IMG/VR virus record: IMGVR_UViG_3300049827_000124
Length of the DNA: 64,000 nucleotides
Reading direction: 5' to 3' (one strand)
Source: an uncultured virus (IMG/VR IMGVR_UViG_3300049827_000124)
Taxonomy: Duplodnaviria > Heunggongvirae > Uroviricota > Caudoviricetes
Part shown: positions 5,873 through 55,744 of the stretch, piece by piece
How positions within the stretch are numbered: position 1 is the first letter of the stretch
Layout: the number at the start of each line of letters is the position of its first letter
Notes under the pieces: generated by a model
Databases searched by the model: none
Told to the model about the DNA's origin: nothing
The model's input: only the letters and a program-made list of their open reading frames with translations
Position numbers and translations under genes: made by a program

Positions 5873-5895
5873 TACAAATAATAACAAAATCTTAT

Positions 5896-7065: not shown

Positions 7066-7076
7066 ATTAAGCTAAG

Positions 7077-8838: not shown

Positions 8839-8870
8839 CTTGCTTAATTGGATAATACTATGTATATTTG
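8839..8870 (+). promoter_or_regulatory. intron-internal promoter for the homing endonuclease
   Basis: CTTG (8839-8842), 20 nt, TATATTTG (8863-8870), 4 nt, ATG (8875). Confidence 0.6.
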
Positions 8871-8874
8871 TACT

Positions 8875-9534
8875 ATGAGAAAAGTAAATTACGTAGATAT
8901 TCCAGAAGCAAAGTTAGATAAGCTTGAGCAGTTTATTAGAGGATCTTTATTAGGAGATGGATCTATTCCAAAGAAAGATAGAGCATCTAGAAATTATAGA
9001 ATGACTTTTGGGCATGGGGAGAAGCAAAAAGAGTATTTAAAATGGAAACATGATTTTCTTGAAGAGTACCTTTTGTCAGGAGCTATTGTAAAAGTAATAG
9101 CTAAATCTGATCGATACATATCAGGACAATGTGTATCATACCATTCTAAAAGTAAAGCTCATCCTATATTTTCTAAGTATAGAGAACTTTATTACAAAGA
9201 CAAACGAGAAATTAATAGAGAGGACATAGTTAATTTAGATCTATTTGGATTAGCTATTTGGTATATGGATGATGGTAATATTTCTAAAGGAAAGAAAAGA
9301 TCTCCACATATTGAGTTAAACACTCAATCTTTTATGTCTGAAGATGTTACTTTTTTAGCACAACTACTTAGAGATAAGTGGGGAATTAAATGTGCTAGAA
9401 TGGCACATAGTAACATAATTAGGATTAGCTCGTATGATTGTAAAAAGTTTTTAAACTTAATAGAACCTTATAAAATAAATTGCATAGCTTATAAATGGGT
9501 CCTGGGTAAAGAGGAAGAATTGCTGGAAAGCTAA
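8875..9534 (+). CDS. intron-encoded LAGLIDADG homing endonuclease (two-motif)
   Basis: GSLLGDGSI and LAIWYMDDG motifs, ELNTQSF. The track start 8848 is TTG; ATG 8875 is preferred because of the promoter position. Confidence 0.9.
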   Translation: MRKVNYVDIPEAKLDKLEQFIRGSLLGDGSIPKKDRASRNYRMTFGHGEKQKEYLKWKHDFLEEYLLSGAIVKVIAKSDRYISGQCVSYHSKSKAHPIFSKYRELYYKDKREINREDIVNLDLFGLAIWYMDDGNISKGKKRSPHIELNTQSFMSEDVTFLAQLLRDKWGIKCARMAHSNIIRISSYDCKKFLNLIEPYKINCIAYKWVLGKEEELLES

Positions 9535-13600: not shown

Positions 13601-15184
13601 AAGTAAAATATCTACTTGTACTTCTAATCCAATCTTGTTGTAGATCTTCTGTTGTCTCTTTAAGCTTTTAATTAAGTCTGCAACTTTCTCCTCCATCTCA
13701 GTAAGCTTAGAGCTTTCTTTACCTTGTCTACCTAAAGTATCTTTCTTTTCTAGAATAGACTCTTCAATCTGAGATAGGACACTTCTTTCCCCACCCCCAA
13801 GTAAATCTTTAATAAGGTTACCTACATTGAGCATGTCTCTTTGGATAGCAAATTTATCGTCTTCTGATAAATCTTTAATGGTATCTTTTTGAGCCACTAC
13901 AGCATTCAAGGATTCTCTGTTCAATTTAACAGCTCGATTCAAGTAGTCTAAGAAGTTTGAGAAGTCTTCAATCTTTTTAACTTCTCTCATTGTCTTAATG
14001 TGAGCTCGTAAGTTAGCAATGACTTCGTCATTCTTAACAGGCATCGACTCAAACTTATCTAACTGTACTTGCAAAGTTTCTGACACAGCTCCTACCATGT
14101 CTCTGAAGTCTTTAAGCTTTGCATCTATAGCTCTACTCTCTTGTATCTCTTCACTTAGTTCTCCAGTAAGTTCTCTAGTATCCAGCTTTTTGCTTAACAG
14201 TTTGTCTACTAAAAGTTCTAAGGCATCATCGTTTAGCTTAAACTCATTTTTTATAGCTCTGAGTAACTTTCTAATGATAGTAAGTAACTTATCTTTAGAA
14301 TTTGCTGGAGCTGTTCTTAAAGCAGCTTTCATACCGATAGCAGTTACCAAAGCTTCTTTTAAAATAAACTCGTCAGACTTGTCTGAGTACAATTCTCTAA
14401 TTTGTCTGTAAAGTTCTGTCTCCAGTATCATCTTGGAAGCTTCCTTTACAAGCTTGTTGTTCTCTCCTAATAAATCTATAAGTATGTGTGCAAACTCATG
14501 GTAGTGAGTATCTTCTGCCATTATTGTGGGGTTAAGTTTTATCTCAACAAGATTATCCTCTACCTTTTCCACCGTTCCTTTTTGACTCATCTTTGAATCA
14601 AACCTTACTTTTACATTTATTCCAGCTGATGCAAAAGTTTCTTTCAAATGCTTAAGCTGTTCTTCAACAGTAGGGGTTACTGTAAATTTATCTCTCTTAG
14701 CTTCTGCAGCTGATTGTTCTACGGTTCTTAAAGATGTATCTCTTTCTGGCCTTGCAATAGTTTTGTTTGCTCGATTCTGTCTAACTACTTCTTTTAATCT
14801 GTCATCAGACATTGTAGGGATAGTAATTTCTCTGGCAGCTGAGTATACTTCAGTGTTAAGTATATCATCATTAAACTCTAGAGATATTCTATTATTTGAT
14901 AATTGAGAAGCTGAAAACAATGGCATACCAAAGTGTCTAGCAATAGTGCTATTCACAATGTTTACCATGTTATTAGGGTCAGACAATTTACCCTTTGCTA
15001 TAAACGTACCGTTAGCCGTTACTGTAAAAGTCTCTGGGAACCCATCAAGTAAAGCATACTTAACGATCTTTTCATTAGAACTTTGAGTAGTTTTTTCAGC
15101 CTCTACAGCATTGAATAGATTTTCAAATCTAATAGATCTAGTAGGATGCTCTTGTCCAAAGGTTTCGTAAACTTTACAGGCCAT
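10691..15184 (-). CDS. giant virion cargo/ejection protein with zincin-like domain and C-terminal hydrophobic helix
   Basis: ~1497 aa from ATG 15184 (MACKV); HEFAH (14486-14500) with downstream KEAL; coiled coils; ISMLVAVTVIGTILLGML; follows the RNAP gene. Confidence 0.75.
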   Translation of the reverse strand: MACKVYETFGQEHPTRSIRFENLFNAVEAEKTTQSSNEKIVKYALLDGFPETFTVTANGTFIAKGKLSDPNNMVNIVNSTIARHFGMPLFSASQLSNNRISLEFNDDILNTEVYSAAREITIPTMSDDRLKEVVRQNRANKTIARPERDTSLRTVEQSAAEAKRDKFTVTPTVEEQLKHLKETFASAGINVKVRFDSKMSQKGTVEKVEDNLVEIKLNPTIMAEDTHYHEFAHILIDLLGENNKLVKEASKMILETELYRQIRELYSDKSDEFILKEALVTAIGMKAALRTAPANSKDKLLTIIRKLLRAIKNEFKLNDDALELLVDKLLSKKLDTRELTGELSEEIQESRAIDAKLKDFRDMVGAVSETLQVQLDKFESMPVKNDEVIANLRAHIKTMREVKKIEDFSNFLDYLNRAVKLNRESLNAVVAQKDTIKDLSEDDKFAIQRDMLNVGNLIKDLLGGGERSVLSQIEESILEKKDTLGRQGKESSKLTEMEEKVADLIKSLKRQQKIYNKIGLEVQVDILLDYVTPEIDSLLQNTIDNIKTNRRLISIIKDEKYDALKKRFQEDELTKEEYENELIELNIEQLENKKLGRETLLNELREAQTDKSGYSVYMDPLMYSTQVTLQLFGSMVKNKLYQASADTREIIDELAPIYREYANYKGTDIDPKKFNSEILETQVYYVDDPKTGFKKRMEILSFVQPYDVTKFHEDEYSMRKTLAEKYEMPKNVDYEVFKEWKKSDKGVSYFREVAKWYNRNTVRTEEGALLKDKLTARLRDVSAKAKLVEGTNPDLYIAYEAQIIDLKSQIGRIYDSVNDQYKGMAVRPNSNYANPRYSQLIDASGNPIGAAGAYYKGFLDVYHRQQRIVGKQTPLKNDWDDVSYVVPSVESQGLEKIQQDSYNVFKSAVHFAKREFSFLETDDSYGMSINANKEQRNKIVPVFYSNPTDAKFVSHDIGSTIVLYAGMANMFKRKSEITGAVIMMRDIVERREVLEVNANNVPFLSAAARKAGVTRHTRRKGEVSNNFQHLSEFIDKIFFGESEIKSSINIGNATISGNKIINKLTTFTALNQLSLNFLQAGNQYLIDNEKLMEEAVAGQFFNAKNLTWAKLTYGKLLLSGDTVKDMGKFSPDTKLSRFIAEFDILGDALNDYKTKKTGNRAFKAMGRDALFFAQHMAEHETAVTRGLAIADSLKGKLKDVNGEVIKNEDGSEANLWDLYKQDEKTGKWDLDSRVANYKKINIINLISGVYKKTNQIKTDFDDPLINRRWWGKALAMYRRYFQPGLRRRFGYGIGTGLHIDTETDTITEGMYTSFVRYMRESISKGFKFGSVYQMLSEDFEKPNVKRTTAEISMLVAVTVIGTILLGMLDDDDEEDDQFATAFFAYQALRMQAELAQFWNPAEFYRFIASPTALSRPIVDAALLIDQLLTEELPYRIKLALDVELDDEDTKQIFYQKNSNGHLKGESKTAAMGNKLLPISNGLSKSFSPEEALKFFTQ

Positions 15185-15196
15185 ATTCACTTATTT

Positions 15197-18100
15197 TTAT
15201 AACATACATAGCTGAGCTACATCATTAGTTGATTCTTTATTAACAGAAGCATCGTAAATTAACTGAGCTAAACTAAGAGCTTCGTTTATTGGAACGTCGT
15301 TACCAATAGTTTTTATATTCAAGAAGTCTCCACCTACGATATGCTTTTTGTTATTATTAACTTTTCGTAAAGATAGGTATTTTGCAGTAGAATTTTTATT
15401 ACTGTAGGTGCTATCATCCATAATATATACATCAGTCTTACCTTTATCATCTCTAAGGATTAATATTTTAGGTACGTTTTTTCCGTATTTCTTAATGGGA
15501 ACATTAACTTCAGGTTTCAAAAGTTTACCTGCTGCTAAATTACTTCTTTCTACTAAGTTACTTCCTCCAGGACGTATTTCACCAAAAATTCTGAAGAATC
15601 TTATCAAATCTTCCCCTGTAAAGTATGAACTGTTTTGCATCTTCATGCTTTGCTCATGCATATACTCAGCAATGCTTATAGGTTTTAACTCTTTTCCTTG
15701 TGTATCTAATTTCCCTATACGATCTAAAGGTTGGGTATAGAAATTTGCAGGAAGTAAATCTGCAAAGTTATATGCAGAAGTTCTAAATCCGTTGCTGATA
15801 AAGGTGTGCATAGCTATCTTGAATCCAAAAGTTCTGATTTGATCTGCTTTTGCTTTGTAAGATTTCTTTTCTTCTTCTGATGCAGTTCTGCTTAACTTCC
15901 CTAAGTAAGCTTCTGGTCTGTACAAAAGATTAGTTAAGTCATCTTTTATACGTTGCTTTTCTTTTGGGGCATATTGTTGAGTAGCATCAAAGTTTAGAGT
16001 TCTGAATCCTTTAAACTTAACATTATCATTGTCAGCTTTAATTTTAGATAGAAACTCGTTAGCTCTTAGGTTTGGGAATTTTTTAACAATGTTATCTAGT
16101 TCCCCTAAAAGTGTAAGACTATTTTTACTTGGCTTGTAGGTAGCATCGCTGTAAGCTTTATCAAAGTAAACTCGTAATGGAGAGTCTGGTCTAGATAAGA
16201 CGGTAAACATGATTGCAGGATTAACTTCTCTGTGCATATCTGCTGTGAGATTTTCCTTACCTATCATAGCTTTTACAGTTTTCTTAAAGCTCTTTACTTG
16301 AGAAGATAAAGTCATTGGGAACAATATGCTTGCTACATCCAATGTTTCTTGTATCATTTTGTAATAGCCTCTTGAAAGTCCGTATGCAGAATCTTCATCT
16401 AAAATTTGTTCTACTACATTCTCATCCATAGATCTACCATAGAATGCAATAGGAGCTCTTTGGAATTTACCTTCTGCAGGATTCATGAATCTATCTTTTC
16501 TTTCTAAGAAAGCTTGCATAGATTCAATTCTATTCAAACCATCCATAGTATCAGGAGTAATTACTTTAAAGAATTCTTTAAGCTGTTGACCAGCTGCATA
16601 GAATTTCATAAAGTTTGACAATGCAGTTGCTGGACTTACTTTAAAATCCGTAATAGCTTGTCTATTCATTGATTTAGTTTTCTCAATGTCCTTGTAGTTA
16701 GGAGGAAGTGTAGTACCTGTGGTATCTATATTAAACTCTTCTGCAACTGCACGGTATGCATTGTTGATTTGAGTTAAATTTGAACCATAGTTAATTGACA
16801 TGATATCTACAAATCTTCTTATGATTGGTTGATTTAAGAAATCATGTAAAAGCTTTGTATCCCCAAAAAAGTTAATCCAATAGTTCTCTACAGGGAATGT
16901 AATTATGTTGTCATTGATAACATATTGCAATGGATCTTTTGTGGTATCTACAGCAGCTGATAAATAACGGCTGACAATTTTATCTGTAACAACGTTATTA
17001 TCATAAGTAGCATTTTCATTTTTAACTTTAGATAGCAACTTTGTATTTATAACTTCTCCTTCAATCTTTACTGCAAAACTGTCAAAGACATTTACTTCTA
17101 AGTTTGTAGCTACGTTACGACCGGCCAGTGCATTTGCCCATAGTCCTCTTAGTTTAACCCCTAAAAGATTTCTGATTGAACTTTGAGTTTCATATTCTCC
17201 TCCTGTCCACAATCGGCTAATAGCTAGCTCTGGTCTTCTTTCTATTAATGAATTACGAATAGATGGAAGAGCTGTTGAATCCAAAGGACTTAAAGTTTCT
17301 AAGAAGTGATGAGAGCTAGATAAAACAGCTTCTATTGTATCTAGCATTACATTGTTTAGTTGAGCATCTGATATACCTTTTAGCTTACTTAAATCTCTGT
17401 ATACTTCCTCGTAATCAGCAGTTGCTTTAGCCATTACAGTAGTAGTGATAGTGCTTCCGTCAGGGTTTGTAATTGTAACTTGTCTCTCCTCTAACTCTGG
17501 GAAAAGCAAAAACATTTTATCGACGTCAAAGTCAGATCCCATTAACTGTGCTAGCTGTGGTGGAACTATTATCGATTTCTCATGATTCTTTGGCAAGATA
17601 GCTTTGATCCTAAACATGATCATAGATGCCTTATCTTGGTTAGGGATACGGTAGGCAAATAACTTTCTTAAAGATTCTGGAATTTCATCAAGTGAATATT
17701 CTCCTTCAGGAAGGTTAAACTTTCTTAGTACATCTTCACGAACCATTATTTCAGCAGACGATAATCTTAGTCCACTTTTATTCTTAGGATTGTTATGAGG
17801 TACAATTTCTAAGAACTGCAAAGTATCTAAAGTTCCAACATCATCTTTAGTAATTTTCATAGCTCCTAGAGTACTTGCTTGAACAGCCTCGTAGCCTGGG
17901 AGTCTTTGCTTAAATACATTGTTGTTGTATATGCTAAGCAATGATGATTGGAACTTTCTTCCAAATACTGGGAAGTCTAACGGTATAGAGAACTTAGGTA
18001 TTCCTGTAGTCGGATCGATAGTAATGTTTAAAGCTTCAAGATAGTTTTCACTTACATCTGCTTCTACTACTTGTCTTTCTATAATACCTCTAAGCCTCTG

Positions 18101-21100
18101 CATAAGCTTCAACTTAGCATCTTTGAATTCCTGAGTTTTTAAAATCTCATCTATTACAACTTTGCCCTTTTTATTTGTAGCATTTTTAAGTTGCTCAACG
18201 ATCTTTTTAAATTCTGTTAATCCGATCTCTTCGTTTACTGTTGCTATGTCTCTGTTGATTCTTTCTTCAATAGCTGCATGATACATGGCAAGCATTGACT
18301 TTCCAGAGATAGTAGTCTCCTTCAAAAAGTTTCTAGGATCTTCTTCCATACCAGCATTTAAGAAGTATATGTTAGAAGGATCTACGTTAGCAATAGCATT
18401 CTTCTTTGCTTGTCTATTGAATATTGCAGTTAGCTCTTTCTTAGATTCTGGGATGATTTGTGGGAATCTAAGTTTACTTGTATCATGAGTAGCAAGAACA
18501 ATATCAGTTAGGCTTCCTGGTACATGCTGACCTTTTGCATCTAGCTTTGTTTTAAAGTCGTACACATTAGCAACTAATGTTTTCTTAGCAGAAAGAGCAT
18601 GTGCTACTGATATTTTAGGAAGACCTGTATTTGCATATGGACTGCCAATCTCCAAAGGATTCATTTCCAATCTTTGTCTTAAGTCGTCAAGGATTGGGAA
18701 TCTTTCTGTGTGTTCTTTTAATGCTACGAAGTAAGCAGTTTTATGAGTTTCAGCAACAGTAACTCCACTTACATTTTTTAAATCTTCAAAGTAAGGTTTC
18801 ATAGGAAGTACAGGCACATGATCTCCAATAGATGCTCCTGGAGGAAGTTTCTTTGCATATTGTGCAAGACCTTCTTCACTCATAGGAACTCTAGGCCCAT
18901 AGATAAATCTTCCTGTTTTATTATAGTTAAGGTAAGCATCTTCATGATACTCTTTCCATAACCCACGTCCTTGCATTATACTTCTATAAAAATCCATAGA
19001 GATTATTGCAAAAGCATTTGTCTCTTCAAATTCACCTGGATTATATCCGTATAAATCTTTAAGATCTTCTTCAGTATAAAGTCTTTGACCTTTAGAGTTT
19101 ACCATGTTTCTTAAAGTGTTCACAGTTCTTGACACATAGTCTTGAGCTGCTTCTTTAATTGCTTGAGTAATATCTAATCTAGGGTCTAAGAATGTAAAGT
19201 CAGTAAAAGTAGGATCGGCTCCATAAGATTCTGACATCCATGTAACTTTGTTCCCTGCCTCTTTAGCTGATAGTGTATTTTTAATTCCCAATTTTACCCC
19301 AGGAGTAGAAAGCAATCTTTGACGTTTTGTAAAGTCATCATTGTTTTTAAACAATGCTCTGTTACCTCTAGTCATTTTGATTATCTCATTTCTTCCTAAG
19401 TCTTCGTGAACTAAAAAGTCTTTCATCATTTTTACCATTGCTTCTCTTCTAGACTCTCTGGTAATTCCTTTTCCTTTATCTACTAATGTTCCCCACTTCT
19501 GCAAATCTTTCTTTCCAATTTCTAACCCTCTATCAGCCTCTAATATTTTATCAGCTAGAGATTCTGCCATGTTGTTGTAAAATTTACCCAAGTCAGCAGT
19601 CATTCTCTTCAACTCGATTTCATACAGCTTTAAAGTTTTATCTAAAGGAATATTGTTCTTCTTGTATTCAAGATATCTTTTAGTCTCTCCTGACATTTTT
19701 TTAATTACACCGTCAGTCTTTAAGACTACGTCTGTAACAATTCTTTCATTGTTCTCGTAGATACCGTCAAACTGCATGTACTCACTTGAGATACCTCTAT
19801 TAGCTCCAGATGTATATCCTTCTAATTTTACTGCATTAGGATCATCAATGATCTGTTGAGCTTTATCTATACGTAAAAAGTCTTCTAAGATTCCTCTTTG
19901 AAATACTTCAGCATAGCTTTTAAGATTTAAATTAGGATCGTCATGCCCTTTGATTCTAGGCATAGGTAAGAAGTCTGTACTAGTTCTATCTCCTGCTGCA
20001 GGGATTACTACTTTACAATATTTCTTATCTCCATTGTTTAGATACTCTTGAATTCTAGCTAACACAGCTGTTATTTCATCAAAGTCTTCATAATCTGTTG
20101 CATCGTCGTGACGATCTTTAACAGCATCTACAGTAGGTACTTTAAAATTTTGTGCAAACTCTGGGTTGTGAAGCAAGTGTCTAAACAAATGGCTTAACCC
20201 TAGCTCGTTGCTGTATACAAAAACATCTTGTTTATAAAATTGCAAAGCATCTGTACCATTCTTTTCAATATCTCTTTTAATATTCTGAACAATATCATCC
20301 AAAGGTCTGGTTAAGTTGGTAGGATTCATTAATGAACCTGTAGCACTTACAAAACTTTCTGACGTTTTACTTAAAAATAATGGAGTAAGTTCTGATAAAA
20401 ATTTAACCCCTGATCCTTCAATATCAAAATAAGGAATAACTGGAGCAGGTGAATTTCCAAATGTAAGTTGATTCTTTAAAACAGAAAAGTTTACTACTCC
20501 TTTACGTACCATTGAGAATAAACTACCATTAGTTACAATGTAATCGTACAAGTCTTTACCATCTCTTAGTACTGTCTTGGATTTTGTTTTTACATAGATA
20601 CCCTTGTCAATAATGTTTTGTAGATTTTTGATAGTATCTTGTATATCAGATTTGTTACCTAGGTTCATACCTAACTCCCAAATCAAACTTGCTAAACTAA
20701 TTACTGCTCTAGACGGAGTCCCATCTTCATTTGATTTAAATCTTACTTGTTCTTTAGAAGATATTGCAGATTGTACTCTTTCAAGAGCAACTTTAATTCT
20801 TTCTACTTTTGCTTTTTTAAGACTGAATGTAGCTATCTCAGACTCTTCATCAAAGTTCTTTACATACAAAGCTCTATTTAATTCTGAAGTATCATACTCT
20901 TGGCCCCCTACTTCCACTGCTTGCTCTCTCCATTGAGATGCAAGTTTAGACTGTGTTGTTAGGGTATTGGCATTTATTACTTTAGAATCTTCCCCAAGTA
21001 TAATTAAATCAAAGTCTCGTATTGTATTAGAGAATGCACTGAACAAAAGTGCTCTATCATCAGCAGGTAATGTGTCAATTTTTGTACTAATAGATAGGTA

Positions 21101-22741
21101 GTCTGGACGATGTCTTGCATAGTTCTTCAACTTTATCTCCATATCTATGAAGTCTTGAGAATCTGCCCACAACTCTAAAAGCTGCTTATAAACAAATGGA
21201 AGTTCGTGGTAGATAGGTTGATTTGTAATGTATTTATTTTTAACATTCTTTGTAAATACTTTTCCATCTACTTCAATCTGTTCAGTTACAGGTATTCTTC
21301 TTAGTACAGTTTTTGCTCGTTGACTTAATCTTTTAGAGATAGCTACAGCATAGTGTACTTGAGAGTGCTTCTTTTCTTCTACTCCGTCTAATGCTTCAAG
21401 TGTAGAATCATCTGCGGCATCAAAAGTATCATCCTCTTCGTAAGTTACTTTACTCGTTTTAGAGCTTACAACATATCCAAAATCTTTTAACTCTCTTGTT
21501 ACAAAATCTCTCCAAGCCGGTACGATTGTATTGCCTGTTTTAGCTTCAAACTTACCGTTCCAGTTTTCAATTATGTCAAATATATAGTCTCTTCTTTGTC
21601 TAGTTTCTGCAACTAATTTAAGGTCTCTAGGACTAGGATCTACTGGTACAGCAGGGAAGTTATTTAGGCTAACTTTGTTTGCTAAGTTATGAGCTTTGAA
21701 TGCTTTTACAGCATCATCATATTTCTGCTTGTACTCTGGCTTTGGGTTATTTTTTAAAGCCGTGGCATACCTCTTAGTCTCTCTTTCTAGAATAAATGAC
21801 TTTAATAAGATAGGAATCTCTACAGTTTTATTGCTTGGATTTTCTTTTGGAAAAGAATATAATGAATACAAAAGACCATTTACTATAGAACCATTTGTTT
21901 TAGTGTTACCTAAAATAGATCCCATGTTCACATTATCCCCACGATCATTAATCTCATCTATGACTTTGTGAACTAATCCATCAGTAAGTTCATCGACAAC
22001 AGCACTTGGTATCCCGTCTCTATATCTATTAGGGTTAATGTTAGACTGCATCTTTTCAGAATTCCTTAGTACCCCTCTGCCAAACAATGTTTTATTAACA
22101 TTATTAGACTTCAATAGTGAATAAGTTTGACGTAATGTCAAATCATTAGAGATGATAGCTTTAATCCACTCTAGCAAATCTTGGAACCATTGAAGAATAC
22201 CTTTAGTTGCAGACGTCTTTTCAGATAGCATAAACGTTCTGAAATCTGTAGCCATCTTTTCTTCAAGAACTAGGTTAGAAGCTTCTTGATCAGATATTTT
22301 TATTTCTGGGAATTCTTTTTTAATGTCTTCAACTTCAGCAGCTGTAGGTTTTCCGTACATTTTTAGAGCTTCTTTGTACAAGCCTTCTCTTTGCTTTTCC
22401 GAAAGCATTGTTCTAAACATCAAGTGGTACCCTTCATGGAATTCTGTACCAACTTCTGCCTGTCTCCAAATATTTATAGCAGCATTAGCTACATATCCAT
22501 GTTGAGATCTATTGCCTATTTGATTAGCAATATTGTAAAACTTAACTTCTTTACCAGGGAAAGTTTTAGAAAGCCAGTTTTTAGCTTTCTCTTCATTTAT
22601 CTTTTCGTAGTCAAAAGAATCTTTGATGTATTCTTCTACATTTCCTTTTGTATCGTTCCAAACTGTATAAGGATACTTAACATTCTTATTAGCTACTAAG
22701 GCTTTCCACTCTGGTAAATTTTTATTAGGGCAAAACGTCAT
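15197..22741 (-). CDS. virion-packaged single-chain double-psi-beta-barrel RNA polymerase (phi14:2 gp66-like) with N-terminal zincin-like domain
   Basis: 2514 aa; catalytic GSDFDVDK (DFDVD 17519-17533) preceded by YRIPNQ; HEGYH (22424-22438) with LEEKMA. Confidence 0.9.
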   Translation of the reverse strand: MTFCPNKNLPEWKALVANKNVKYPYTVWNDTKGNVEEYIKDSFDYEKINEEKAKNWLSKTFPGKEVKFYNIANQIGNRSQHGYVANAAINIWRQAEVGTEFHEGYHLMFRTMLSEKQREGLYKEALKMYGKPTAAEVEDIKKEFPEIKISDQEASNLVLEEKMATDFRTFMLSEKTSATKGILQWFQDLLEWIKAIISNDLTLRQTYSLLKSNNVNKTLFGRGVLRNSEKMQSNINPNRYRDGIPSAVVDELTDGLVHKVIDEINDRGDNVNMGSILGNTKTNGSIVNGLLYSLYSFPKENPSNKTVEIPILLKSFILERETKRYATALKNNPKPEYKQKYDDAVKAFKAHNLANKVSLNNFPAVPVDPSPRDLKLVAETRQRRDYIFDIIENWNGKFEAKTGNTIVPAWRDFVTRELKDFGYVVSSKTSKVTYEEDDTFDAADDSTLEALDGVEEKKHSQVHYAVAISKRLSQRAKTVLRRIPVTEQIEVDGKVFTKNVKNKYITNQPIYHELPFVYKQLLELWADSQDFIDMEIKLKNYARHRPDYLSISTKIDTLPADDRALLFSAFSNTIRDFDLIILGEDSKVINANTLTTQSKLASQWREQAVEVGGQEYDTSELNRALYVKNFDEESEIATFSLKKAKVERIKVALERVQSAISSKEQVRFKSNEDGTPSRAVISLASLIWELGMNLGNKSDIQDTIKNLQNIIDKGIYVKTKSKTVLRDGKDLYDYIVTNGSLFSMVRKGVVNFSVLKNQLTFGNSPAPVIPYFDIEGSGVKFLSELTPLFLSKTSESFVSATGSLMNPTNLTRPLDDIVQNIKRDIEKNGTDALQFYKQDVFVYSNELGLSHLFRHLLHNPEFAQNFKVPTVDAVKDRHDDATDYEDFDEITAVLARIQEYLNNGDKKYCKVVIPAAGDRTSTDFLPMPRIKGHDDPNLNLKSYAEVFQRGILEDFLRIDKAQQIIDDPNAVKLEGYTSGANRGISSEYMQFDGIYENNERIVTDVVLKTDGVIKKMSGETKRYLEYKKNNIPLDKTLKLYEIELKRMTADLGKFYNNMAESLADKILEADRGLEIGKKDLQKWGTLVDKGKGITRESRREAMVKMMKDFLVHEDLGRNEIIKMTRGNRALFKNNDDFTKRQRLLSTPGVKLGIKNTLSAKEAGNKVTWMSESYGADPTFTDFTFLDPRLDITQAIKEAAQDYVSRTVNTLRNMVNSKGQRLYTEEDLKDLYGYNPGEFEETNAFAIISMDFYRSIMQGRGLWKEYHEDAYLNYNKTGRFIYGPRVPMSEEGLAQYAKKLPPGASIGDHVPVLPMKPYFEDLKNVSGVTVAETHKTAYFVALKEHTERFPILDDLRQRLEMNPLEIGSPYANTGLPKISVAHALSAKKTLVANVYDFKTKLDAKGQHVPGSLTDIVLATHDTSKLRFPQIIPESKKELTAIFNRQAKKNAIANVDPSNIYFLNAGMEEDPRNFLKETTISGKSMLAMYHAAIEERINRDIATVNEEIGLTEFKKIVEQLKNATNKKGKVVIDEILKTQEFKDAKLKLMQRLRGIIERQVVEADVSENYLEALNITIDPTTGIPKFSIPLDFPVFGRKFQSSLLSIYNNNVFKQRLPGYEAVQASTLGAMKITKDDVGTLDTLQFLEIVPHNNPKNKSGLRLSSAEIMVREDVLRKFNLPEGEYSLDEIPESLRKLFAYRIPNQDKASMIMFRIKAILPKNHEKSIIVPPQLAQLMGSDFDVDKMFLLFPELEERQVTITNPDGSTITTTVMAKATADYEEVYRDLSKLKGISDAQLNNVMLDTIEAVLSSSHHFLETLSPLDSTALPSIRNSLIERRPELAISRLWTGGEYETQSSIRNLLGVKLRGLWANALAGRNVATNLEVNVFDSFAVKIEGEVINTKLLSKVKNENATYDNNVVTDKIVSRYLSAAVDTTKDPLQYVINDNIITFPVENYWINFFGDTKLLHDFLNQPIIRRFVDIMSINYGSNLTQINNAYRAVAEEFNIDTTGTTLPPNYKDIEKTKSMNRQAITDFKVSPATALSNFMKFYAAGQQLKEFFKVITPDTMDGLNRIESMQAFLERKDRFMNPAEGKFQRAPIAFYGRSMDENVVEQILDEDSAYGLSRGYYKMIQETLDVASILFPMTLSSQVKSFKKTVKAMIGKENLTADMHREVNPAIMFTVLSRPDSPLRVYFDKAYSDATYKPSKNSLTLLGELDNIVKKFPNLRANEFLSKIKADNDNVKFKGFRTLNFDATQQYAPKEKQRIKDDLTNLLYRPEAYLGKLSRTASEEEKKSYKAKADQIRTFGFKIAMHTFISNGFRTSAYNFADLLPANFYTQPLDRIGKLDTQGKELKPISIAEYMHEQSMKMQNSSYFTGEDLIRFFRIFGEIRPGGSNLVERSNLAAGKLLKPEVNVPIKKYGKNVPKILILRDDKGKTDVYIMDDSTYSNKNSTAKYLSLRKVNNNKKHIVGGDFLNIKTIGNDVPINEALSLAQLIYDASVNKESTNDVAQLCML

Positions 22742-22744
22742 ACT

Positions 22745-25700
22745 CTAGTCAGTGTTACAAGTTTCTTCATGTTCTTTTTCTTGATCTTGAATCTCTTTTA
22801 TCATTTTTTCAGCCTCTGCCAAAGTAATGGTTTTTCCTTCAGCTTTAAACAGATTCACAACTCCTTCAGCATCTATGGCATCCATCATAATAGCAGCTTT
22901 TACTCCTGCTCCTAGAACGGTTCCTTTTACAAACCCTTCTTTTACTTTACCATTCTTTACAATAGTTGCTTCTTCCTCTTCTAGTTCATCTTCTGCAGGC
23001 TTAACCACTGTCTTACCTTTTTCCTCAGTTGTTGTACTTGCTTTTTTCTTACCACTATTTTTGATAGCTGGGTCAGAATTTGTGCTAGTAGTCTTTCTTT
23101 CAAAGGTAACTTTGCCTGCTAAGACTTCAGAAATTTTAAAGCTTAGCTCGAAATCCTTCTTAGCAAATGTACTAACTTTTTGAATGTTTCCAACTTCATC
23201 ATAAGCAATTGGAATATATAATACGTGACCTGATGAAATTCTAACCTTAGTGTTATTCTCCATCCCATGCCCAACTAGCATGTATGCATATGCACTAAGT
23301 TGAGAACCATGCTGTTGACGTTTACTCTTACTCTTAATCTTTGTTTCTGGGTCTACGTATCCTACATCATACTTTTCTAATCCAGCTTCTGATCCAGTTT
23401 TAATATCGTAGATACTGTACGAGTTGTCTTTATTTTTTACAAGGATGTCAAATTTACCTGCAAGCTTATATTGAGACGTGTATACAACTTTCTCTACTGC
23501 AATTACCTTTCCTCCATTTTTAGTTAAGATTTTATTCATACCTCTTAGCTGAGTCATCAAATCTAAAAATGCTACTGGTTTCATTCCAGGAGGCCTCTTT
23601 ACAAGTTTAGGATTCTGCACGTACACTTCAGCTACCTTGTGAACACTTGTACCGGCCTTACTAGAAGCTACTTGTTTCTCTTTTGGACCATTGAATGGGT
23701 CAGAAGTTCTACTTGTTGTTCTGTCAAATTTCTTAGCAGCTAAATCGTCAGCAGTTTGAATTAAGTAATGTGTTTCTTCTCCTGTAATAGGATCTTTGTA
23801 CATTCCTTTAAACTCTTCCTTTTCGATATTGTCTAATATGTTAACAAGGACGTCTTTAGTTACTTCCCCATCTGCATCTACAGTAGAAGTTTTACCACTT
23901 AGTCCTTCATTTTTGTCAGACACTTCAGCTGATACTTCTTCCTCTTCTTCTAATCCTGCTTTCTTTTCAAGTTCTTCAATAGAGTTTCTGTTTCTATTTT
24001 GAGCAGGAGGAGCTTCAACCTCTTCTTCTTGCTCTACTGGTGTTAGAGTTTCTTCTTCAGGTTGAATAGTATTCCCTAATTCATTTTCATTCAATAGGTC
24101 ATTAGACAAATCAACATCGTCATACTCAGCATTTGTGTCATCGTCCTCTACATATTCTTCTTCCTGTTGAGAAAGTTGTTTATCAATAGGAGTGATTACA
24201 GCAGGCTTGGCCGGTGTCTCAGTAAATGGATTTTCTAATGCCTTTCCATCTACTAACATTGGTCCATAGGTAATTCCTACATCAAAAAATGGTGATCCAG
24301 TTTTTGAATTAAATACTTTATCAGTACTTAATATCCCAGAGTGCCCTAAACTTTCTTCAGCTATATCAGGAATAGCAGCTTCATCCCCAAGATAATCTAA
24401 GTATGTTGCATAAGTAACAGTTGGATCTATTGGACTAGTAAAAGGTTCGTCACTTCCTAATCTGTTTACATCTACTTGATATCTACGTTTTAAGATAGCA
24501 GATGTGAAAGCTTTGTTGATATCATTTTCAAATAGCTTTTGATCTTTTCTTGTAGTGTCGTTTACAAAATCAATTGCTCCTTTTTCAGTTCTCTCTGCTG
24601 TTACAAATCCGTATTTGAATGAAGATGTTCCTGTAAAAGCTAAGAACAAATCTTGAGCACTTATTTGAATGTAACTTTCTGCAGATGGAACATAGAAAAT
24701 GTAGGTAGAAACTTGTTCATCTCCACGATTTATAATATCATGGAAAAGTAAATCTCTATTTTCAAGACCTATAGCAGCTTCTTTACGAACATTAAATCCG
24801 ACAATATCATTTACTCTATCAAAGTCTTGGTCATTAATTGCTGTAACTACTTTTTGTACTCCAATAGTAGTCATCATTTTAGTAGTCATTCTTAGGTGCT
24901 TGTATCCTCCTAGTGGATCCTCCACTACCATTGCAACTTTACCTAAGTCTCTATCACTGATGTCCCATGCAGTTGTATCTATCTCTACTCCTTTTGCAAC
25001 GTTATCTCCATATCTATAGATGGTCCATCTAAGCATTCCTTTAACTGTAGTAGCTACTGCTAGGGTAGGAACAACCTTAGATCCATCTTCTCTTTTTATA
25101 AATGGATTATAGAAATATACTTCTCCGGCTTTTGTTCTAGCATTGGTTATTCCTTTATTAGAATTATATCGTTTTCCTGCAACGGTAGATGTAACTTTCT
25201 TACCACTTATAATATTCTTGTAGATCTCTTCTCTACTAGAATTTGTTTCTACATTGCCAGGCTTATACCCTTCTAACAATCCAATTCGTACAACTCGGCC
25301 ATCAGCTTGGTAAGCCTTTACAAGAATAGGAATAGACTTCCACATGTCTTCTGGTGTTATTCTTCCAGAAGCTACTTCTTTTTGAAACCAAACTGAATCA
25401 CCTATTAGCTCAAATTCTAATGTAGTATTTAATGGGATTAACTCATTACTTGCTAAGTTAAATTGCTCAATTCCTAATCGTACTTCTTTTCCAACAGAGT
25501 TAATTACTGTCGGGGCTACTCTAAGATACTCAGGATTTGATTGAGGTTTTCCATTATCATCAACTTCTATGTGATCAAATCCTCCTTCTTCGTATTTATA
25601 TTCACTAGATACAAGTCTAGCATTTATGGCACCACCTTCATTCTCTTTAACAGGAGCTGTAACAGAAGCAGACATTTCTTCATTGTCATCTTCAACTACT

Positions 25701-28700
25701 GGATACTCTACTTCTTCTTCATCATCTTGTATAAAGTTAGAAGAGTCTGTTATCTGTGGAATTTCAGTATCTTCTTCACTTCCTTCTATAAAGTCTGCAT
25801 TTGAAATTATTTCAGCAGTTAATATTAAACCTTCTTCTTCACCTAGTCCAGTTTCATTTACATCCACCGTGCCATCTTCAGGTGCTTGAACAGCTCCTTC
25901 AGTCTCTGGTTGATTTCCTTGTTCTTGAGTGTATTCCGTAGCTCCTTCGGGAGTTTGTAAATCTTGGCTAGCTTGACTTGACTTTCTACTTTCATATTCT
26001 TCGTTTATTCTAGTTAGTTCTTCTTGTATAAATTCTTTTTGAGCTTCTGCTGCATTTAAAAGTCTATTTAGCTCTTCAAGATTATTCACATCTTCGTCTG
26101 AAGCTATACCATTTCTTACAGCTCCTTCGATAGCATTGATTTCATTAGAAAGATTCTTGATCTCTAAATTTACATCGTCAAGCTTTGCTTGTGCTTGTCC
26201 TGATAAGTCTTCAAGATTTACTTCTTCGTCTACAGTTATTCCGGCTGGAACACTAGTTGACGGAGTTGTTTCTGCAGGTGTTTCAGTTTTAGAGTGTAAT
26301 GCATCTACGAACTTTTTGTAATTAGCCTTAGCATCTTTTAAAAGTTTCTGTAATGCAAGTACTTGTGGATCTTTGTTAAACTCTTCTCCAGACATTTGCT
26401 GTCTTAGATAAGATTCTTTTAAGAAACTGTAACTGCTTAATATGTTGTAGATAAAAGTTTTGTACTCTTTAGCAGCTCTTTCAATTGATGTATTTGAAGA
26501 GGTCTTAAGATTTATATCAGTAGTAACTTCTACAGCTTCTGCTTGTTGAGTTAAGGCATCTATCTGAGCATCTACTTTATTTTTTACTTCTACTTCACTG
26601 AGGGCAGCTGTATTAATTGTACCTTGAGAAGCTGCACTTGTAGCTATTATTTCTGCAAGTTCTAATACTAATGTATTATTTTCTTCAGCTCTAAATATAA
26701 CTGTTTGCCCAAGTTCGTTTGTAAGCTTTACAGATTTTATAAAAGATATAGACTCATCTTCTGCAGCTAATTGCATAGCTTCTTGATCAATGTCAATAGC
26801 AGCTAATGGATCTTCTTCTAGATTTTCATAGTTTACTCCATTGACTCTGAGCAATCTACCATTAGTAGATCGTAGTACAATATTATTAGAGTACGATGTT
26901 GTAATACTTTCTTCGTCAACTTCTTGGCTATCTCTTAAAGCATTTGCTGCTTCTTCTGCCTCATCTTCTGCTTCTCTGTCTGCCTTATTCTTTGCTCTAT
27001 TTGCTATCTCAGATTCCTCCTGAGTCTCTCCTTTTAGGTCGGCTATAACTTCTCTTAGGGCTAAAGCTTTTTGTGGATCAGCCTCTTCGATCTCATCCAT
27101 GTTCTTAGCTAGATCTTCTAACTCTTCTAAGGATAAAACAATATAGTCTTTTTTAAGCTCTGACTCTATCTTCTTAAGCTCGTCATATTTTTTATTAACA
27201 GCTGCTTGCACTTCTGGATCAAGGGTTTCATATTTCCCTTTTACCATATCGTCTAACTCTTTACTAGTTCTAGCTTCTGAAATTGCAAATCCTGCAGCTT
27301 TGTTTGCTTTAGCTAATTCAGCTTGACGTGCTATAGATTGCTTAGCAGCTATTGCTAAATCTCTTTTCTCTGGAGATTTTACTAATTCGTCAAAAGCAGC
27401 TAGAGCCTCTTCTCGTAAAGCTATAGTGTTAAATAAATTAGTGTAAGCATTTTTAAATTTCTGTCTATTGATAGGATCTAAACTTTCTGCTTCTTCTAAA
27501 GCTTTGTCTAATCCTTGTAAGAATTCAATATCTTCTTTAGCTTTCCCCTCCTTAGTAATAGTTTTGAATGTAGGCCCAGTTTTCTCTGACTCTGCAACCA
27601 TACCAGCATCAGAAAGCTTAGTGTCTGTTAAAGTAGGTGGCATTGTAATGTTACCATTCTCATCTACACTTACTTTATTTCTTTTTACTAATGCTACTAA
27701 CTTATTGAAATCGTAATTTCCAAATGCCTTTTTTAAGGCATCAGAACTGTTCAACGATATTTCTTGAAGTTCTTTAAGTGATGCATCAATTTCCTTTTCT
27801 CTTGATTTAATACCTACCATTGATGACAACAGTACAGTCTTAAGTCTTTGATTATAAAGGTTTTGTATTGCAGCCTCTTGCTTAGATTCTTTTGACATCA
27901 GCATTGCACCAAGGCCTTGCTTCTCTGGTTGCATCATTGTAATGATACTATCAATATCATCACTAAGTTTTGCAAACTCTTTTAGTCTTTCTTTCTTCTC
28001 GTTTATTAATTCTAAATGATTTTTACCACCTGTCTGCTCTTTTAGAGGAGTAGTCAAATCGTAACCACCACGTTTCATAAACTCTTCTTCAGATAAACTT
28101 CCTAAGTCATCTAGCTCTTCAAGACCTAAACTCATGGCTCCTAGTGACTGCAGCTTTGAAGCTCTAGCAGCATCTAGGTTCATTCTCAATTCTTCTGCAA
28201 GTTTAAAGTTACCTACAGCATTAGCATCTTGAATATTTTTAATAAGCTTTAACTGCTCTACGTTAGCTTCTGCAGAAGCCATCATGTTGGCAAAAGATCC
28301 AGAGTTTTTTATCTCTAATAACTTTTCAGTGTTAGCTTTTAATTGCTTACGTTGTTGAGATTCTGCTCCAGAGATTGTTGAAGAAGCTCCCATCATTCCT
28401 CCAGTGATAGCCCCTAAAAGCATAGACTCTAATCCTTCGGTTGTCCCAAAAGTATTAGATAATCCTTCTACAACAGATTGTGTAATATCAGCAACACCAT
28501 CATCAAATTTGTTTCTGAAGTAGCTATTACCTACATCTCCAATCATAAACTGAGCACCTTCTTGGAAAGCTTCAGTTAATGCATTTTCATATATAGGTTT
28601 TGCAAATCTATTAGCATTTCTAAAAGTTCTTCCAAATGCAGTTTTAGCAGTTGCTTCTACAAACTTTTCCCCATCATTTACTATGGCATTGGTAAGAGTA

Positions 28701-29815
28701 GGTTTACCATACTTTCCTCCCATGATATGCTTTCCAAACATTAAAAGGTTTGTAGGCATAAGTACTGCTAAGTTCCATCCAAATGTAGTATTTTCTAAAG
28801 CTTTAGCAGAGTCATTGATGCTTTTTCTAACATCTTCTGGCATATCGTCTTTAGCACTTTTTCCTGGGTTTTGTTGTTCCCAAGCTTCGTACATTTCTTC
28901 CGTAAACATTTTAGATTTTTCACGGGCTTCTACAGATGCTTCTCCAAGAGACATCATAGCCCCCATCTCTAAGTGTCTAGTAGCATTTAATAATTTAGCA
29001 GCATTGGCATATGCAGCTACATCTCCTGTTAATGCTGTACCGGTTTTAATAAGTTTAGAAGCTTGGTAGATATTTTTAAGCTTCTCTCCAGTGCTAATTA
29101 TTTTACCAGCATTTAATACTTCTCCAGCACCCATGATAGCTCTGGCTCCTACACCTGCTCCTCTAGCAAGTAGTCCAGAACCTCCTGTAAGCCATACGGT
29201 TGCTATAGATCCTAAGCTATATCCTAGTCCGTTAGCAACTTTATCTGTCCAAAAGTTAGCATTTAAACTAACTTCTCTTCCTGGCTCAAGTTCTTTATTT
29301 GTGTAGTAGTGAGGCAAGTTTTTAGACATCCACTCGTTGGTGTCATCTACTGCTCTTCCTACAAAGTTATCTGCATATGAATCTCCCCCAATACCAGCAG
29401 CAGAGAATAACCCAGCTACAACTCCTAAGGTATTTTCAGCAACTGCTCCAGTACCTGTAGTAAGTAATTTTAAAGTTCCGTAACCTAATTTTTCAAGAGT
29501 GCCTTGGTTTTTTGCACGAATGTCATTCCAATCAGCATATGGATTTAAAGGGACACCGTATCCCACATAGTTTCCAATTGGATCAGTATATACATTTGTT
29601 AAATCTACAGCACTTCTAGATCTAGATAATGGATCTTTACCAGTTGCAACAGAAGTTTCTTTTATCCTTACCTGCCCTACTCCTGCGATACTCCCCAAAT
29701 CATCTGCAGCCCCATTTCCTGAAGGCTTAGATTTATCAACAATGTTAGATTTAGGAAGCCCTGTAATACTGCTTAAATCGTCAAGAGCTGTTGTAGATTC
29801 TACTGTTTGGTCCAT
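22745..29815 (-). CDS. giant virion cargo/ejection protein with N-terminal membrane-helix region and C-terminal PD-(D/E)XK nuclease
   Basis: 2356 aa; Gly/Ala-rich hydrophobic helices in the first ~480 aa; acidic linkers; AGTSVH...EKVV...AGKFDILV...IYDIKTG...QLSAY near the C-terminus. Confidence 0.75.
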   Translation of the reverse strand: MDQTVESTTALDDLSSITGLPKSNIVDKSKPSGNGAADDLGSIAGVGQVRIKETSVATGKDPLSRSRSAVDLTNVYTDPIGNYVGYGVPLNPYADWNDIRAKNQGTLEKLGYGTLKLLTTGTGAVAENTLGVVAGLFSAAGIGGDSYADNFVGRAVDDTNEWMSKNLPHYYTNKELEPGREVSLNANFWTDKVANGLGYSLGSIATVWLTGGSGLLARGAGVGARAIMGAGEVLNAGKIISTGEKLKNIYQASKLIKTGTALTGDVAAYANAAKLLNATRHLEMGAMMSLGEASVEAREKSKMFTEEMYEAWEQQNPGKSAKDDMPEDVRKSINDSAKALENTTFGWNLAVLMPTNLLMFGKHIMGGKYGKPTLTNAIVNDGEKFVEATAKTAFGRTFRNANRFAKPIYENALTEAFQEGAQFMIGDVGNSYFRNKFDDGVADITQSVVEGLSNTFGTTEGLESMLLGAITGGMMGASSTISGAESQQRKQLKANTEKLLEIKNSGSFANMMASAEANVEQLKLIKNIQDANAVGNFKLAEELRMNLDAARASKLQSLGAMSLGLEELDDLGSLSEEEFMKRGGYDLTTPLKEQTGGKNHLELINEKKERLKEFAKLSDDIDSIITMMQPEKQGLGAMLMSKESKQEAAIQNLYNQRLKTVLLSSMVGIKSREKEIDASLKELQEISLNSSDALKKAFGNYDFNKLVALVKRNKVSVDENGNITMPPTLTDTKLSDAGMVAESEKTGPTFKTITKEGKAKEDIEFLQGLDKALEEAESLDPINRQKFKNAYTNLFNTIALREEALAAFDELVKSPEKRDLAIAAKQSIARQAELAKANKAAGFAISEARTSKELDDMVKGKYETLDPEVQAAVNKKYDELKKIESELKKDYIVLSLEELEDLAKNMDEIEEADPQKALALREVIADLKGETQEESEIANRAKNKADREAEDEAEEAANALRDSQEVDEESITTSYSNNIVLRSTNGRLLRVNGVNYENLEEDPLAAIDIDQEAMQLAAEDESISFIKSVKLTNELGQTVIFRAEENNTLVLELAEIIATSAASQGTINTAALSEVEVKNKVDAQIDALTQQAEAVEVTTDINLKTSSNTSIERAAKEYKTFIYNILSSYSFLKESYLRQQMSGEEFNKDPQVLALQKLLKDAKANYKKFVDALHSKTETPAETTPSTSVPAGITVDEEVNLEDLSGQAQAKLDDVNLEIKNLSNEINAIEGAVRNGIASDEDVNNLEELNRLLNAAEAQKEFIQEELTRINEEYESRKSSQASQDLQTPEGATEYTQEQGNQPETEGAVQAPEDGTVDVNETGLGEEEGLILTAEIISNADFIEGSEEDTEIPQITDSSNFIQDDEEEVEYPVVEDDNEEMSASVTAPVKENEGGAINARLVSSEYKYEEGGFDHIEVDDNGKPQSNPEYLRVAPTVINSVGKEVRLGIEQFNLASNELIPLNTTLEFELIGDSVWFQKEVASGRITPEDMWKSIPILVKAYQADGRVVRIGLLEGYKPGNVETNSSREEIYKNIISGKKVTSTVAGKRYNSNKGITNARTKAGEVYFYNPFIKREDGSKVVPTLAVATTVKGMLRWTIYRYGDNVAKGVEIDTTAWDISDRDLGKVAMVVEDPLGGYKHLRMTTKMMTTIGVQKVVTAINDQDFDRVNDIVGFNVRKEAAIGLENRDLLFHDIINRGDEQVSTYIFYVPSAESYIQISAQDLFLAFTGTSSFKYGFVTAERTEKGAIDFVNDTTRKDQKLFENDINKAFTSAILKRRYQVDVNRLGSDEPFTSPIDPTVTYATYLDYLGDEAAIPDIAEESLGHSGILSTDKVFNSKTGSPFFDVGITYGPMLVDGKALENPFTETPAKPAVITPIDKQLSQQEEEYVEDDDTNAEYDDVDLSNDLLNENELGNTIQPEEETLTPVEQEEEVEAPPAQNRNRNSIEELEKKAGLEEEEEVSAEVSDKNEGLSGKTSTVDADGEVTKDVLVNILDNIEKEEFKGMYKDPITGEETHYLIQTADDLAAKKFDRTTSRTSDPFNGPKEKQVASSKAGTSVHKVAEVYVQNPKLVKRPPGMKPVAFLDLMTQLRGMNKILTKNGGKVIAVEKVVYTSQYKLAGKFDILVKNKDNSYSIYDIKTGSEAGLEKYDVGYVDPETKIKSKSKRQQHGSQLSAYAYMLVGHGMENNTKVRISSGHVLYIPIAYDEVGNIQKVSTFAKKDFELSFKISEVLAGKVTFERKTTSTNSDPAIKNSGKKKASTTTEEKGKTVVKPAEDELEEEEATIVKNGKVKEGFVKGTVLGAGVKAAIMMDAIDAEGVVNLFKAEGKTITLAEAEKMIKEIQDQEKEHEETCNTD

Positions 29816-43208: not shown

Positions 43209-43469
43209 TTACCAGTTACTGCAACTTCCACAGTTCCAGATTCTAAGTGATTTGTTAATTCTTGATTGAGGATCGTTAGCAGTCTTTGAACTTGTAAGTT
43301 TGGCTTTCATTCCACACATTCTAGAACAGAATGAGTTTCTTCTTTTACCACCTTTAGGCTGAGGAGCCTTTAAGTCTGACCCAGGGTTCTGACTTTCGTA
43401 AGACTTTCTGCCTTTTTCGTTAAGACCCCCTTTTGGATTTTTTCCTGCTTTATTTTGCCAAGCTGCCAT
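43209..43469 (-). CDS. small basic phage protein (DUF6321-like)
   Basis: AWQNKAGKNPKGGLNEKGRKSY...RRNSFCSRMCG...SRINKSLRIWNC; ATG 43469 lies 5 nt after a -7 box. Confidence 0.7.
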   Translation of the reverse strand: MAAWQNKAGKNPKGGLNEKGRKSYESQNPGSDLKAPQPKGGKRRNSFCSRMCGMKAKLTSSKTANDPQSRINKSLRIWNCGSCSNW

Positions 43470-55672: not shown

Positions 55673-55744
55673 CAAAGTTATTACTTGTTTTCAATCAAAA
55701 AGCATAAATTTTATTTTTATACTTTGCTTTATTATATCACACTC
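55673..55744 (-). promoter_or_regulatory. late promoter: 17-bp upstream element plus -7 box TAACTTTG
   Basis: GAGTGTGATATAATAAA (55744-55728) ... TAACTTTG (55680-55673)-TATCT-ATG. Confidence 0.65.

Follow-up and report, generated by a model that had tools for sequence, protein, structure and literature searches.

Facing terminal cysteines at the gene breaks of a giant RNA polymerase cargo module in a crassvirus

Introduction

Few phages of the human gut are as abundant as the crassviruses, and the ordered exit of their ~700-kDa polymerase cargo from the particle, and its activation, are at issue. Here we describe the cysteine (Cys) pattern of three consecutive giant genes, encoding protein A, a virion RNA polymerase (RNAP) protein and protein B, in a stretch of DNA of 64,000 nucleotides (nt) from an uncultured virus (IMG/VR record IMGVR_UViG_3300049827_000124). 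The whole stretch is referred to as the window, and the IMG/VR record places its source in the Caudoviricetes. Positions in proteins with a minus sign count back from the C-terminal residue (-1).

The closest solved arrangement is that of cyanopodophage A4 (Anabaena phage A-4L, Saffermanviridae), in which a disulfide between Cys1715 of gp27 and Cys5 of gp26 was seen by cryo-electron microscopy (cryo-EM) (PNAS 2025, PMC12002296). According to the accessible part of that paper, the C-terminal helix of gp27 sits in a cleft of gp26 and the bond stabilises a 'mortise-and-tenon' pre-ejectosome. In the A4 genome, the sole Cys of gp27 is at -3 and the sole Cys of gp26 is at 5, and Pf-WMP3, Pf-WMP4, and TR020 (L082-L084; 23-27% identity) keep this pattern. 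Both junctions of the window fit the A4 layout, with consecutive giant proteins, an upstream Cys near the C-terminus, a downstream Cys near residue 5, and hardly any other Cys. However, A4 has one such junction, no polymerase is reported in its chain, and the paper, in the same part, treats a single stabilising bond and states no rule that tracks gene splits or fusions (PMC12002296). A blastp comparison of A4 gp27 and gp26 with the crAss module proteins gave no match at E 0.01 or better. The gp26-like heads of Saffermanviridae (L081-L084) read MxxxC, with Cys at 5 (MTLNCPTPNP in TR020), and resemble the 'CP' heads of crAss proteins, with no detected homology.

Among cultured phages, the atlas of crAss001 assigns gp45, gp46, gp47, gp49, and gp50 to the cargo and proposes partial unfolding during ejection, and the inter-subunit disulfides in its models are confined to portal-vertex and tail proteins (PMC10172136, accessible part). 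The masses given there for gp47, gp50, and gp49 (262.5, 276.9, and 154.5 kDa) add up to ~694 kDa. In phi14:2, gp67, gp66, and gp65 are marked in the records as virion proteins by mass spectrometry. Like the window, phi14:2 (gp67-gp66-gp65) and crAss001 (gp47-gp50-gp49) have a DFDxD catalytic protein between two giants with the same Cys pattern, but crAss001 differs in the side of the HExxH domain on which the break falls and in the strand that encodes gp47. The accessible text of the phi14:2 preprint (Drobysheva, 10.1101/2020.03.07.982082) mentions neither cysteine nor disulfide and calls a fused polyprotein 'likely cleaved', and that of PMC7886860 mentions no cysteine, disulfide or fusion. 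In Schitoviridae, the suppression of Cys in the ejection operon (N4 gp50, DEV gp71-73) has been ascribed to passage through the periplasm (PMC11445570, accessible part). These phages also have a giant ejected virion RNAP with partners that are almost free of Cys, but in that part the proteins are called Cys-free, no terminal Cys pairs are reported for them, and their RNAP is of an unrelated type. In the literature searched (supplements and subscription journals were outside its coverage), we found no description of the pairing rule reported below for Crassvirales. The initial annotation of the window was aware of no description of the pattern, which stands for Crassvirales but not for phages generally, given the A4 bond (PMC12002296).

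Terminal cysteines of the three giant proteins

The three genes are separated by 3 and 12 nt.

22745..29815, minus strand: protein A, first member, open reading frame (ORF) of 2356 amino acids (aa)
15197..22741, minus strand: virion RNAP protein, middle member, ORF of 2514 aa
10691..15184, minus strand: protein B, last member, ORF of 1497 aa from the ATG at 15184

The ORF listing for protein B reaches a GTG at 15190, two codons upstream, and this alternative start gives 1499 aa with the Cys as residue 5. Protein A contains one Cys (-4), the RNAP three (4, 909, and 2512, the last being -3), and protein B one (3), at the following codons.

22757..22759, minus strand: TGT, Cys2353 of A (...ETCNTD, residue 2353 of 2356), tail tip at junction 1
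22730..22732, minus strand: TGC, Cys4 of the RNAP (MTFCPNK), head at junction 1
15206..15208, minus strand: TGT, Cys2512 of the RNAP (...QLCML, residue 2512 of 2514), tail tip at junction 2
15176..15178, minus strand: TGT, Cys3 of B (MACKV), head at junction 2
20015..20017, minus strand: internal Cys909 of the RNAP, the sole Cys away from the junctions (a Cys at 915-936 recurs in some homologues)

Four of the five Cys in 6367 residues are therefore at the two junctions, while the N-terminus of A and the C-terminus of B have none. The initial annotation had reported these counts and the facing of the Cys in gene order, and all four junction coordinates were borne out codon by codon. If five Cys were placed uniformly, the probability that four of them fill the four junction-facing windows of 5 residues is ~5e-11. 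The same annotation had placed hydrophobic helices in both outer members, which it suggested could anchor the RNAP. By Kyte-Doolittle hydropathy (19 residues, mean at least 1.6), protein B has one such segment (1347-1365) and protein A has none.

For comparison with other loci, 78 viral loci were fetched by an alignment query (a query with the RNAP protein alone returned none), and removal of 13 near-duplicates by shared 15-mers left 65. Among the complete ORFs of 100-899 aa in these loci and the window (n=270), Cys occurs in the first 8 residues of 7.0% and in the last 8 of 5.6%, with an overall Cys content of 1.11%. Among the ORFs of at least 900 aa (n=125), 59% have a Cys in the first 8 residues and 54% in the last 8, the interior contains 0.028% Cys, and 142 of the 222 Cys are within the terminal 8+8 residues. 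The virion proteins of the window are generally poor in Cys, the upstream proteins of 778 and 1280 aa having none, and the replication-type genes on the plus strand contain 1-2.5%.

Conservation of the terminal cysteines in homologues

Database searches returned 63 matches for the RNAP, 8 for A, and 45 for B, in which Cys positions were counted by script. The tip cysteines were conserved down to about 21-25% identity. Of the 63 RNAP matches, the first 7 residues include a Cys in 50 and the last 10 residues in 62. The 13 misses on the N side comprise 9 proteins with an N-terminal extension of at least 1,300 residues, 2 fragments, P0032, and P0049, and the single miss on the C side is P0033, a fusion of RNAP and B. 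In the 32 closer matches, the N-side Cys is present in 29 (the misses being two N-terminally truncated fragments and P0032) and all 32 have a Cys in the last 5 residues; Cys2512 is an invariant column of the alignment.

Seven of the eight A matches, which include the window's own protein, have their sole Cys at -1, -2 or -4, and the one miss is a partial sequence of 1839 aa. None of the eight has an N-terminal Cys, and C2353 is an invariant column in 16 aligned homologues. Protein B shows the reverse, with a Cys in the first 7 residues of 40 of 45 matches and in the last 10 residues of none. Its five misses are three fragments, P0089, in which the Cys is at 10 after an upstream-extended start, and P0087, which has no N-terminal Cys, possibly because its start was called too late.

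Gene fusions and the junction census

Some phages encode the module as a single huge polypeptide, whereas others divide it into two to four genes. By blastp against the window proteins, P0035, P0037, and P0038 are fusions of A and RNAP, and P0033 is a fusion of RNAP and B. Each of these four proteins contains one Cys in total, located at the end whose partner is still a protein of its own. Homology to A was shown by blastp in three of the nine long N-terminal extensions of the RNAP; the other six (P0042-45, P0047, and P0063) are also at least 1,300 residues long, and these proteins lack the N-terminal Cys and keep the C-terminal one.

In the 65 loci, the catalytic protein was located by motif (many of the distant loci escaped an hmmsearch with the A1 profile), and a junction was defined as two complete plus-strand ORFs of at least 400 aa that are no more than 60 nt apart. 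When the last 8 residues of the upstream protein and the first 8 of the downstream protein were scored, 67 of the 110 junctions had a Cys on both sides, 43 on neither, and none on one side only (Fisher test 1e-31, uncorrected for phylogeny, and the loci are related). With ORFs of at least 100 aa included there were 167 junctions, 27 of them mixed: 22 flank an inserted gene of ~160 aa in 11 loci, 2 flank a small ORF in L070, and 3 involve unrelated small ORFs. In all, 81 Cys/Cys junctions were listed, and in other lineages the pair was found at other break points.

Complete single-gene modules of 5005-5555 aa (L027/28, L029/31, L032, L037, and L062) contain no Cys, nor do the 3'-open ones of up to 6678 aa, and the 5'-open giant of L045 (5081 aa) contains one, away from its C-terminal end. 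Loss of the junction pair on fusion and co-variation of the terminal Cys had been set beforehand as a test in the initial annotation, and both came out as predicted across homologues and loci. In L022, the B homologue appears as two overlapping ORFs (3238-6144 and 6126-7691; 968 and 521 aa) whose break lacks a Cys pair, which may be a frameshift or an assembly error instead of a true split.

Shared ancestry was examined with a quick IQ-TREE run on 67 rows of the catalytic core, on which the Cys state changed at least 12 times on the N side and 8 times on the C side. Nine independent split/fused pairs (starred branches) were available on the N side, of which 8 changed in the same way, none in the opposite way, and 1 not at all (sign test, p 0.008); the unchanged pair is L060, misclassified by the length threshold. 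Sister loci on the tree illustrate the rule, L037 being fused with no Cys and L039 split with the Cys pair.

The pair also spans genes that are not adjacent. In 11 loci it bridges an inserted gene of ~160 aa, which is a ferritin (PF00210) in the three copies scanned with Pfam (L044, L038, and the additional copy of L053); the others were judged alike by eye. These genes of 157-172 aa are located between a Cys-ended and a Cys-started giant.

L038:14115-14606, L042:8839-9327, L044:9276-9752, L046:9328-9801: inserted gene
L051:9193-9678, L052:9243-9740, L057:9267-9749, L058:9432-9905: inserted gene
L065:9276-9752, L066:9334-9807, L067:9378-9866, and also L053:14277-14795: inserted gene

In most of the loci with this gene the break is ~265 residues ahead of the catalytic motif. 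No ferritin is encoded in the window or in its nearest record, G001. In crAss001, one strand encodes gp50 (Cys at 5, 1334, and -9) and gp49 (sole Cys at 5), and the other encodes gp47 (sole Cys at -3). In phi14:2, the single Cys of gp67 is at -1 and that of gp65 at 3, and gp66 carries Cys at both 3 and -2. Since the pair spans both the inserted gene and the opposite-strand genes of crAss001, it is not an artefact of gene adjacency or of the nucleic acid.

At the 81 Cys/Cys junctions, 0-5 residues follow the tail Cys and 2-5 precede the head Cys. These are too few for split inteins or trans-splicing, and a Pfam search of A, the RNAP, and B found no intein family. Lipobox or CaaX-type lipidation was set aside by reasoning only, given the lack of a signal peptide, the variable spacing, and the bacterial host. 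A recoding or read-through signal is excluded by the opposite-strand partners in crAss001.

Identity of the module and its catalytic protein

The window contains a crassvirus structural block, with Pfam matches to Crass_capsid (PF23898, E 3e-80), CrAss_Ring_1, and CrAss_Ring_2. The RNAP protein matches crAss001 gp50 by tblastn (36% identity over residues 1583-1751, ~170 residues, E 2e-16) and contains two conserved motifs.

17519..17533, minus strand: catalytic DFDVD motif of the RNAP, residues 1737-1741, within GSDFDVDK (1735-1742) by pattern
22424..22438, minus strand: HEGYH (HExxH) motif of the RNAP, residues 102-106, behind the head; H102, E103, and H106 are invariant

GSDFDVDK was found in the window RNAP, in crAss001 and phi14:2, and in every one of the 65 loci, in a single giant protein each (68 rows), and D1737, D1739, and D1741 are invariant columns of the homologue alignment. 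Protein A contains a PD-(D/E)XK nuclease domain (residues 2093-2203; Pfam PF12705, E 1.2e-5). Protein B has HEFAH at residue 229, and phi14:2 gp65 has HExxH at 245. B is linked to crAss001 gp49 and phi14:2 gp65 through the B homologues of four other loci, all of which match gp49 and gp65 and three of which match the window B. The only link of the window module to crAss001 gp47 is the N-terminal HExxH domain of the window RNAP, which resembles the end of gp47. PHROGs has no family for the RNAP or B. We take A, the RNAP protein, and B to be the probable RNA polymerase cargo module of a crassvirus.

Heads, tails, and the moving break

The downstream partner of junction 1 starts with a short head, and the upstream partner ends in a linker and a predicted helix.

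22607..22741, minus strand: 'CPN head' of the RNAP, residues 1-45, MTFCPNKNLPEWK..., carrying Cys4
22913..23110, minus strand: predicted disordered linker of A, residues 2236-2301 (AlphaFold2, predicted local distance difference test (pLDDT) 26-40, model residues 140-205)
22757..22822, minus strand: helix predicted at the end of A, residues 2332-2353, with the Cys as its last residue (AlphaFold2 on the last 260 aa, model residues 236-257, pLDDT 64-82)

In the RNAP head, M1, C4, P5, L15, and W28 are invariant in 12 sequences. AlphaFold2 gave pLDDT 73-84 for residues 1-40, with a mean of 56 for the whole model of residues 1-260. The same head is found on the B homologues of L042, L038, L061, and L044 (stretches of 22-42 residues that fall within positions 1-46, with 48-64% identity). 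In L008 (8231-17137) and L014 (4908-12611), insertions of ~545 and ~200 residues separate a Cys head of ~45 residues from the HExxH domain, which shows that the head is a separable unit. The ~40-residue head of the window clade has no counterpart in the fused forms, which have low-complexity linkers instead. Across the junction, 40-200 residues on each side do not align between fused and split forms, so that no residue-level alignment was obtained there. A search for natural proteins with tail and head joined internally found none, its single match being unrelated.

In A, the linker between the nuclease domain and the tail helices is variable and of low complexity in the alignment, and the tail is variable apart from the Cys. 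The model of the tail (mean pLDDT 62.8) predicts the disordered linker followed by helices, the last of which ends at the Cys.

The HExxH domain of the window RNAP (residues 45-230) matches residues 2090-2223 of the 2341-residue gp47 of crAss001 (E 4e-9). The break is thus ahead of this domain in the window and behind it in crAss001, and in one clade it precedes the catalytic motif by ~265 residues. The domain could be a protease that processes fused polyproteins; its putative label, 'zincin-like', was given from the motif.

Interpretation of the cysteine pairs

Judged from the sequences, the tail and head Cys are almost certainly functional pairs that are tied to breaks between separately made proteins. 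The pairing is probably a head-to-tail disulfide tether between the proteins, by analogy with A4 and on simple chemical grounds. The initial annotation had proposed that disulfides join the three proteins: the facing Cys do behave as pairs at breaks, and the bond itself is suggested by analogy with A4 and crAss001 virions. At each break, the upstream piece ends in a short, probably helical tail tipped with Cys and the downstream piece starts with a head of ~40 residues with Cys at 3-7, Cys being nearly purged elsewhere. In the mechanism that we propose, the tail would dock on the head, and the two thiols would form a disulfide once the particle is assembled or released. The disulfides would restore a covalent linear A-RNAP-B chain of ~6,370 residues, which could be ejected in order as a single thread through the tail, and the reducing cytoplasm of the host would then free the polymerase. 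In AB toxins, an interchain disulfide is reduced in the target cytosol. If our reading is right, the two systems would share a cargo chain that is translocated unfolded, held by one disulfide, and freed by cytosolic reduction, but the toxins are unrelated proteins, their chains arise by nicking of one precursor, and they lack the head-to-tail geometry. The purpose of the bond may be one injectable thread, a fixed stoichiometry, or redox release of a self-inhibited polymerase, and we give threading through the tail with subsequent release somewhat less than an even chance of being that purpose.

Several points weigh against the tether. The cytoplasm in which the particles are assembled is reducing, and the environment of gut phages is anoxic. 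The force of the first of these is eased because crAss001 virions do contain inter-subunit disulfides. Among the cargo proteins of crassviruses no such bond has been seen so far, the cryo-EM of crAss001 having left gp47, gp49, and gp50 unresolved (PMC10172136, accessible part). The fused forms work without any Cys and recombinant phi14:2 gp66 transcribes by itself in vitro (10.1101/2020.03.07.982082, accessible part), so the link is not needed for catalysis. An RNAP piece with Cys at both ends could also cyclise or concatenate instead of joining its neighbours. The C side of the tree is under-powered, with 3 of 5 independent pairs changing in the same way, none in the opposite way, and 2 showing no difference, and its criterion that another module protein follows was too loose, misclassifying L050, L053, L070, and L077. 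The C-side Cys of crAss001 gp50, at -9, is a loose case. The loosest is L053 (6782-14290), where the last 12 residues of the catalytic protein of 2502 aa are free of Cys (on the C side the nearest are at -27 and -29, in AKCGC), and the ferritin gene and an ORF of 345 aa come between it and the next Cys-headed giant. Finally, each ORF was started at its first ATG, not at a start from a gene caller; in the module genes this ATG is 0-22 codons after the preceding stop.

The disulfide might be real and yet serve assembly, giving a stable pre-ejectosome with 1:1:1 stoichiometry in the capsid and no role in threading or redox release. The A4 authors read their own bond in this way (PMC12002296), and the crAss001 paper puts three RNAP-associated proteins at equal copy numbers, an estimate given only as an example (PMC10172136; both in the parts accessible). 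We consider this account unlikely as the whole explanation, since Cys placed end to end and purged elsewhere suit a chain that passes a narrow channel, whereas a structural staple could sit anywhere; the assembly and ejection readings can both hold. A bridge through a metal ion, which the initial annotation had allowed, or through an iron-sulfur cluster could form in a reducing cytoplasm, and a ferritin-type gene is exactly at the break in 11 loci (three copies confirmed with Pfam). However, Cys is the only residue conserved near the tips, where further ligands such as His, Asp or another Cys are lacking, the sole solved case (A4) is a disulfide, and the window and its nearest record have no ferritin. 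Such a bridge is therefore improbable.

It is very improbable that each terminal Cys binds a third partner, such as a Cys of the portal, tail or capsid or a small molecule, and not the other tip. Structural proteins of crAss001 do use inter-subunit disulfides (PMC10172136, accessible part), and in the window a near-end Cys is also found in several further virion proteins. But tail and head Cys are gained and lost together, with 0 mixed cases among 110 junctions, fully fused modules are free of Cys, and the outer ends of the module lack it (A N-terminus 0/8, B C-terminus 0/45). Chance, shared ancestry or a nucleotide constraint from start and stop context might be suspected at such tight junctions, given that the window genes are 3 and 12 nt apart and that many loci are mutually related. 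These explanations were refuted by the estimate of ~5e-11, the independent contrasts of 8 to 0, the persistence of the pair across an inserted gene and opposite strands, and the presence of a terminal Cys in only 5.6-7% of other ORFs, and the probability left to them is negligible.

Beyond the tether, the Cys-tipped tail and the ~40-residue head might be portable docking modules, a cut-and-relink kit for a giant ejected polyprotein in which the classes of tail and head set the order and reduction releases the pieces. This proposal is possible and distinctly tentative. The polyprotein could then be split at any linker and relinked post-translationally into a linear chain, helical tails ending in ...I/N-C would pair with the CPN head and ...ICML-type tails with MAC heads, and the break-encoded ferritin of one clade might supply the oxidant.

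The rule of one cysteine pair per break and none when fused is a concrete hypothesis that can be tested cheaply in phi14:2 and crAss001. If true, it would explain how the module has been cut freely in evolution and would tie crassviruses to A4 in a wider principle of podophage ejectosomes. It would also represent a natural means of linking proteins head to tail through disulfides.

Other features of the window

Other proteins of the virion block also have Cys near an end. All of them are on the minus strand. The 220-aa protein at 42324-42986 ends in Cys, and the major capsid protein (53084-54505) carries one at -4. CxxC is found at -11 and -8 of the 413-aa protein at 55737-56978, the 164-aa protein at 49105-49599 contains 12 Cys and ends in CACGC, and the DUF6321 protein (43209-43469) ends in NCGSCSNW. 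These Cys may form further inter-subunit disulfides, as in the crAss001 tail. Among the replication-type genes, a LAGLIDADG homing endonuclease gene (PF03161, E 1.6e-34) was found at 8860-9534 on the plus strand.

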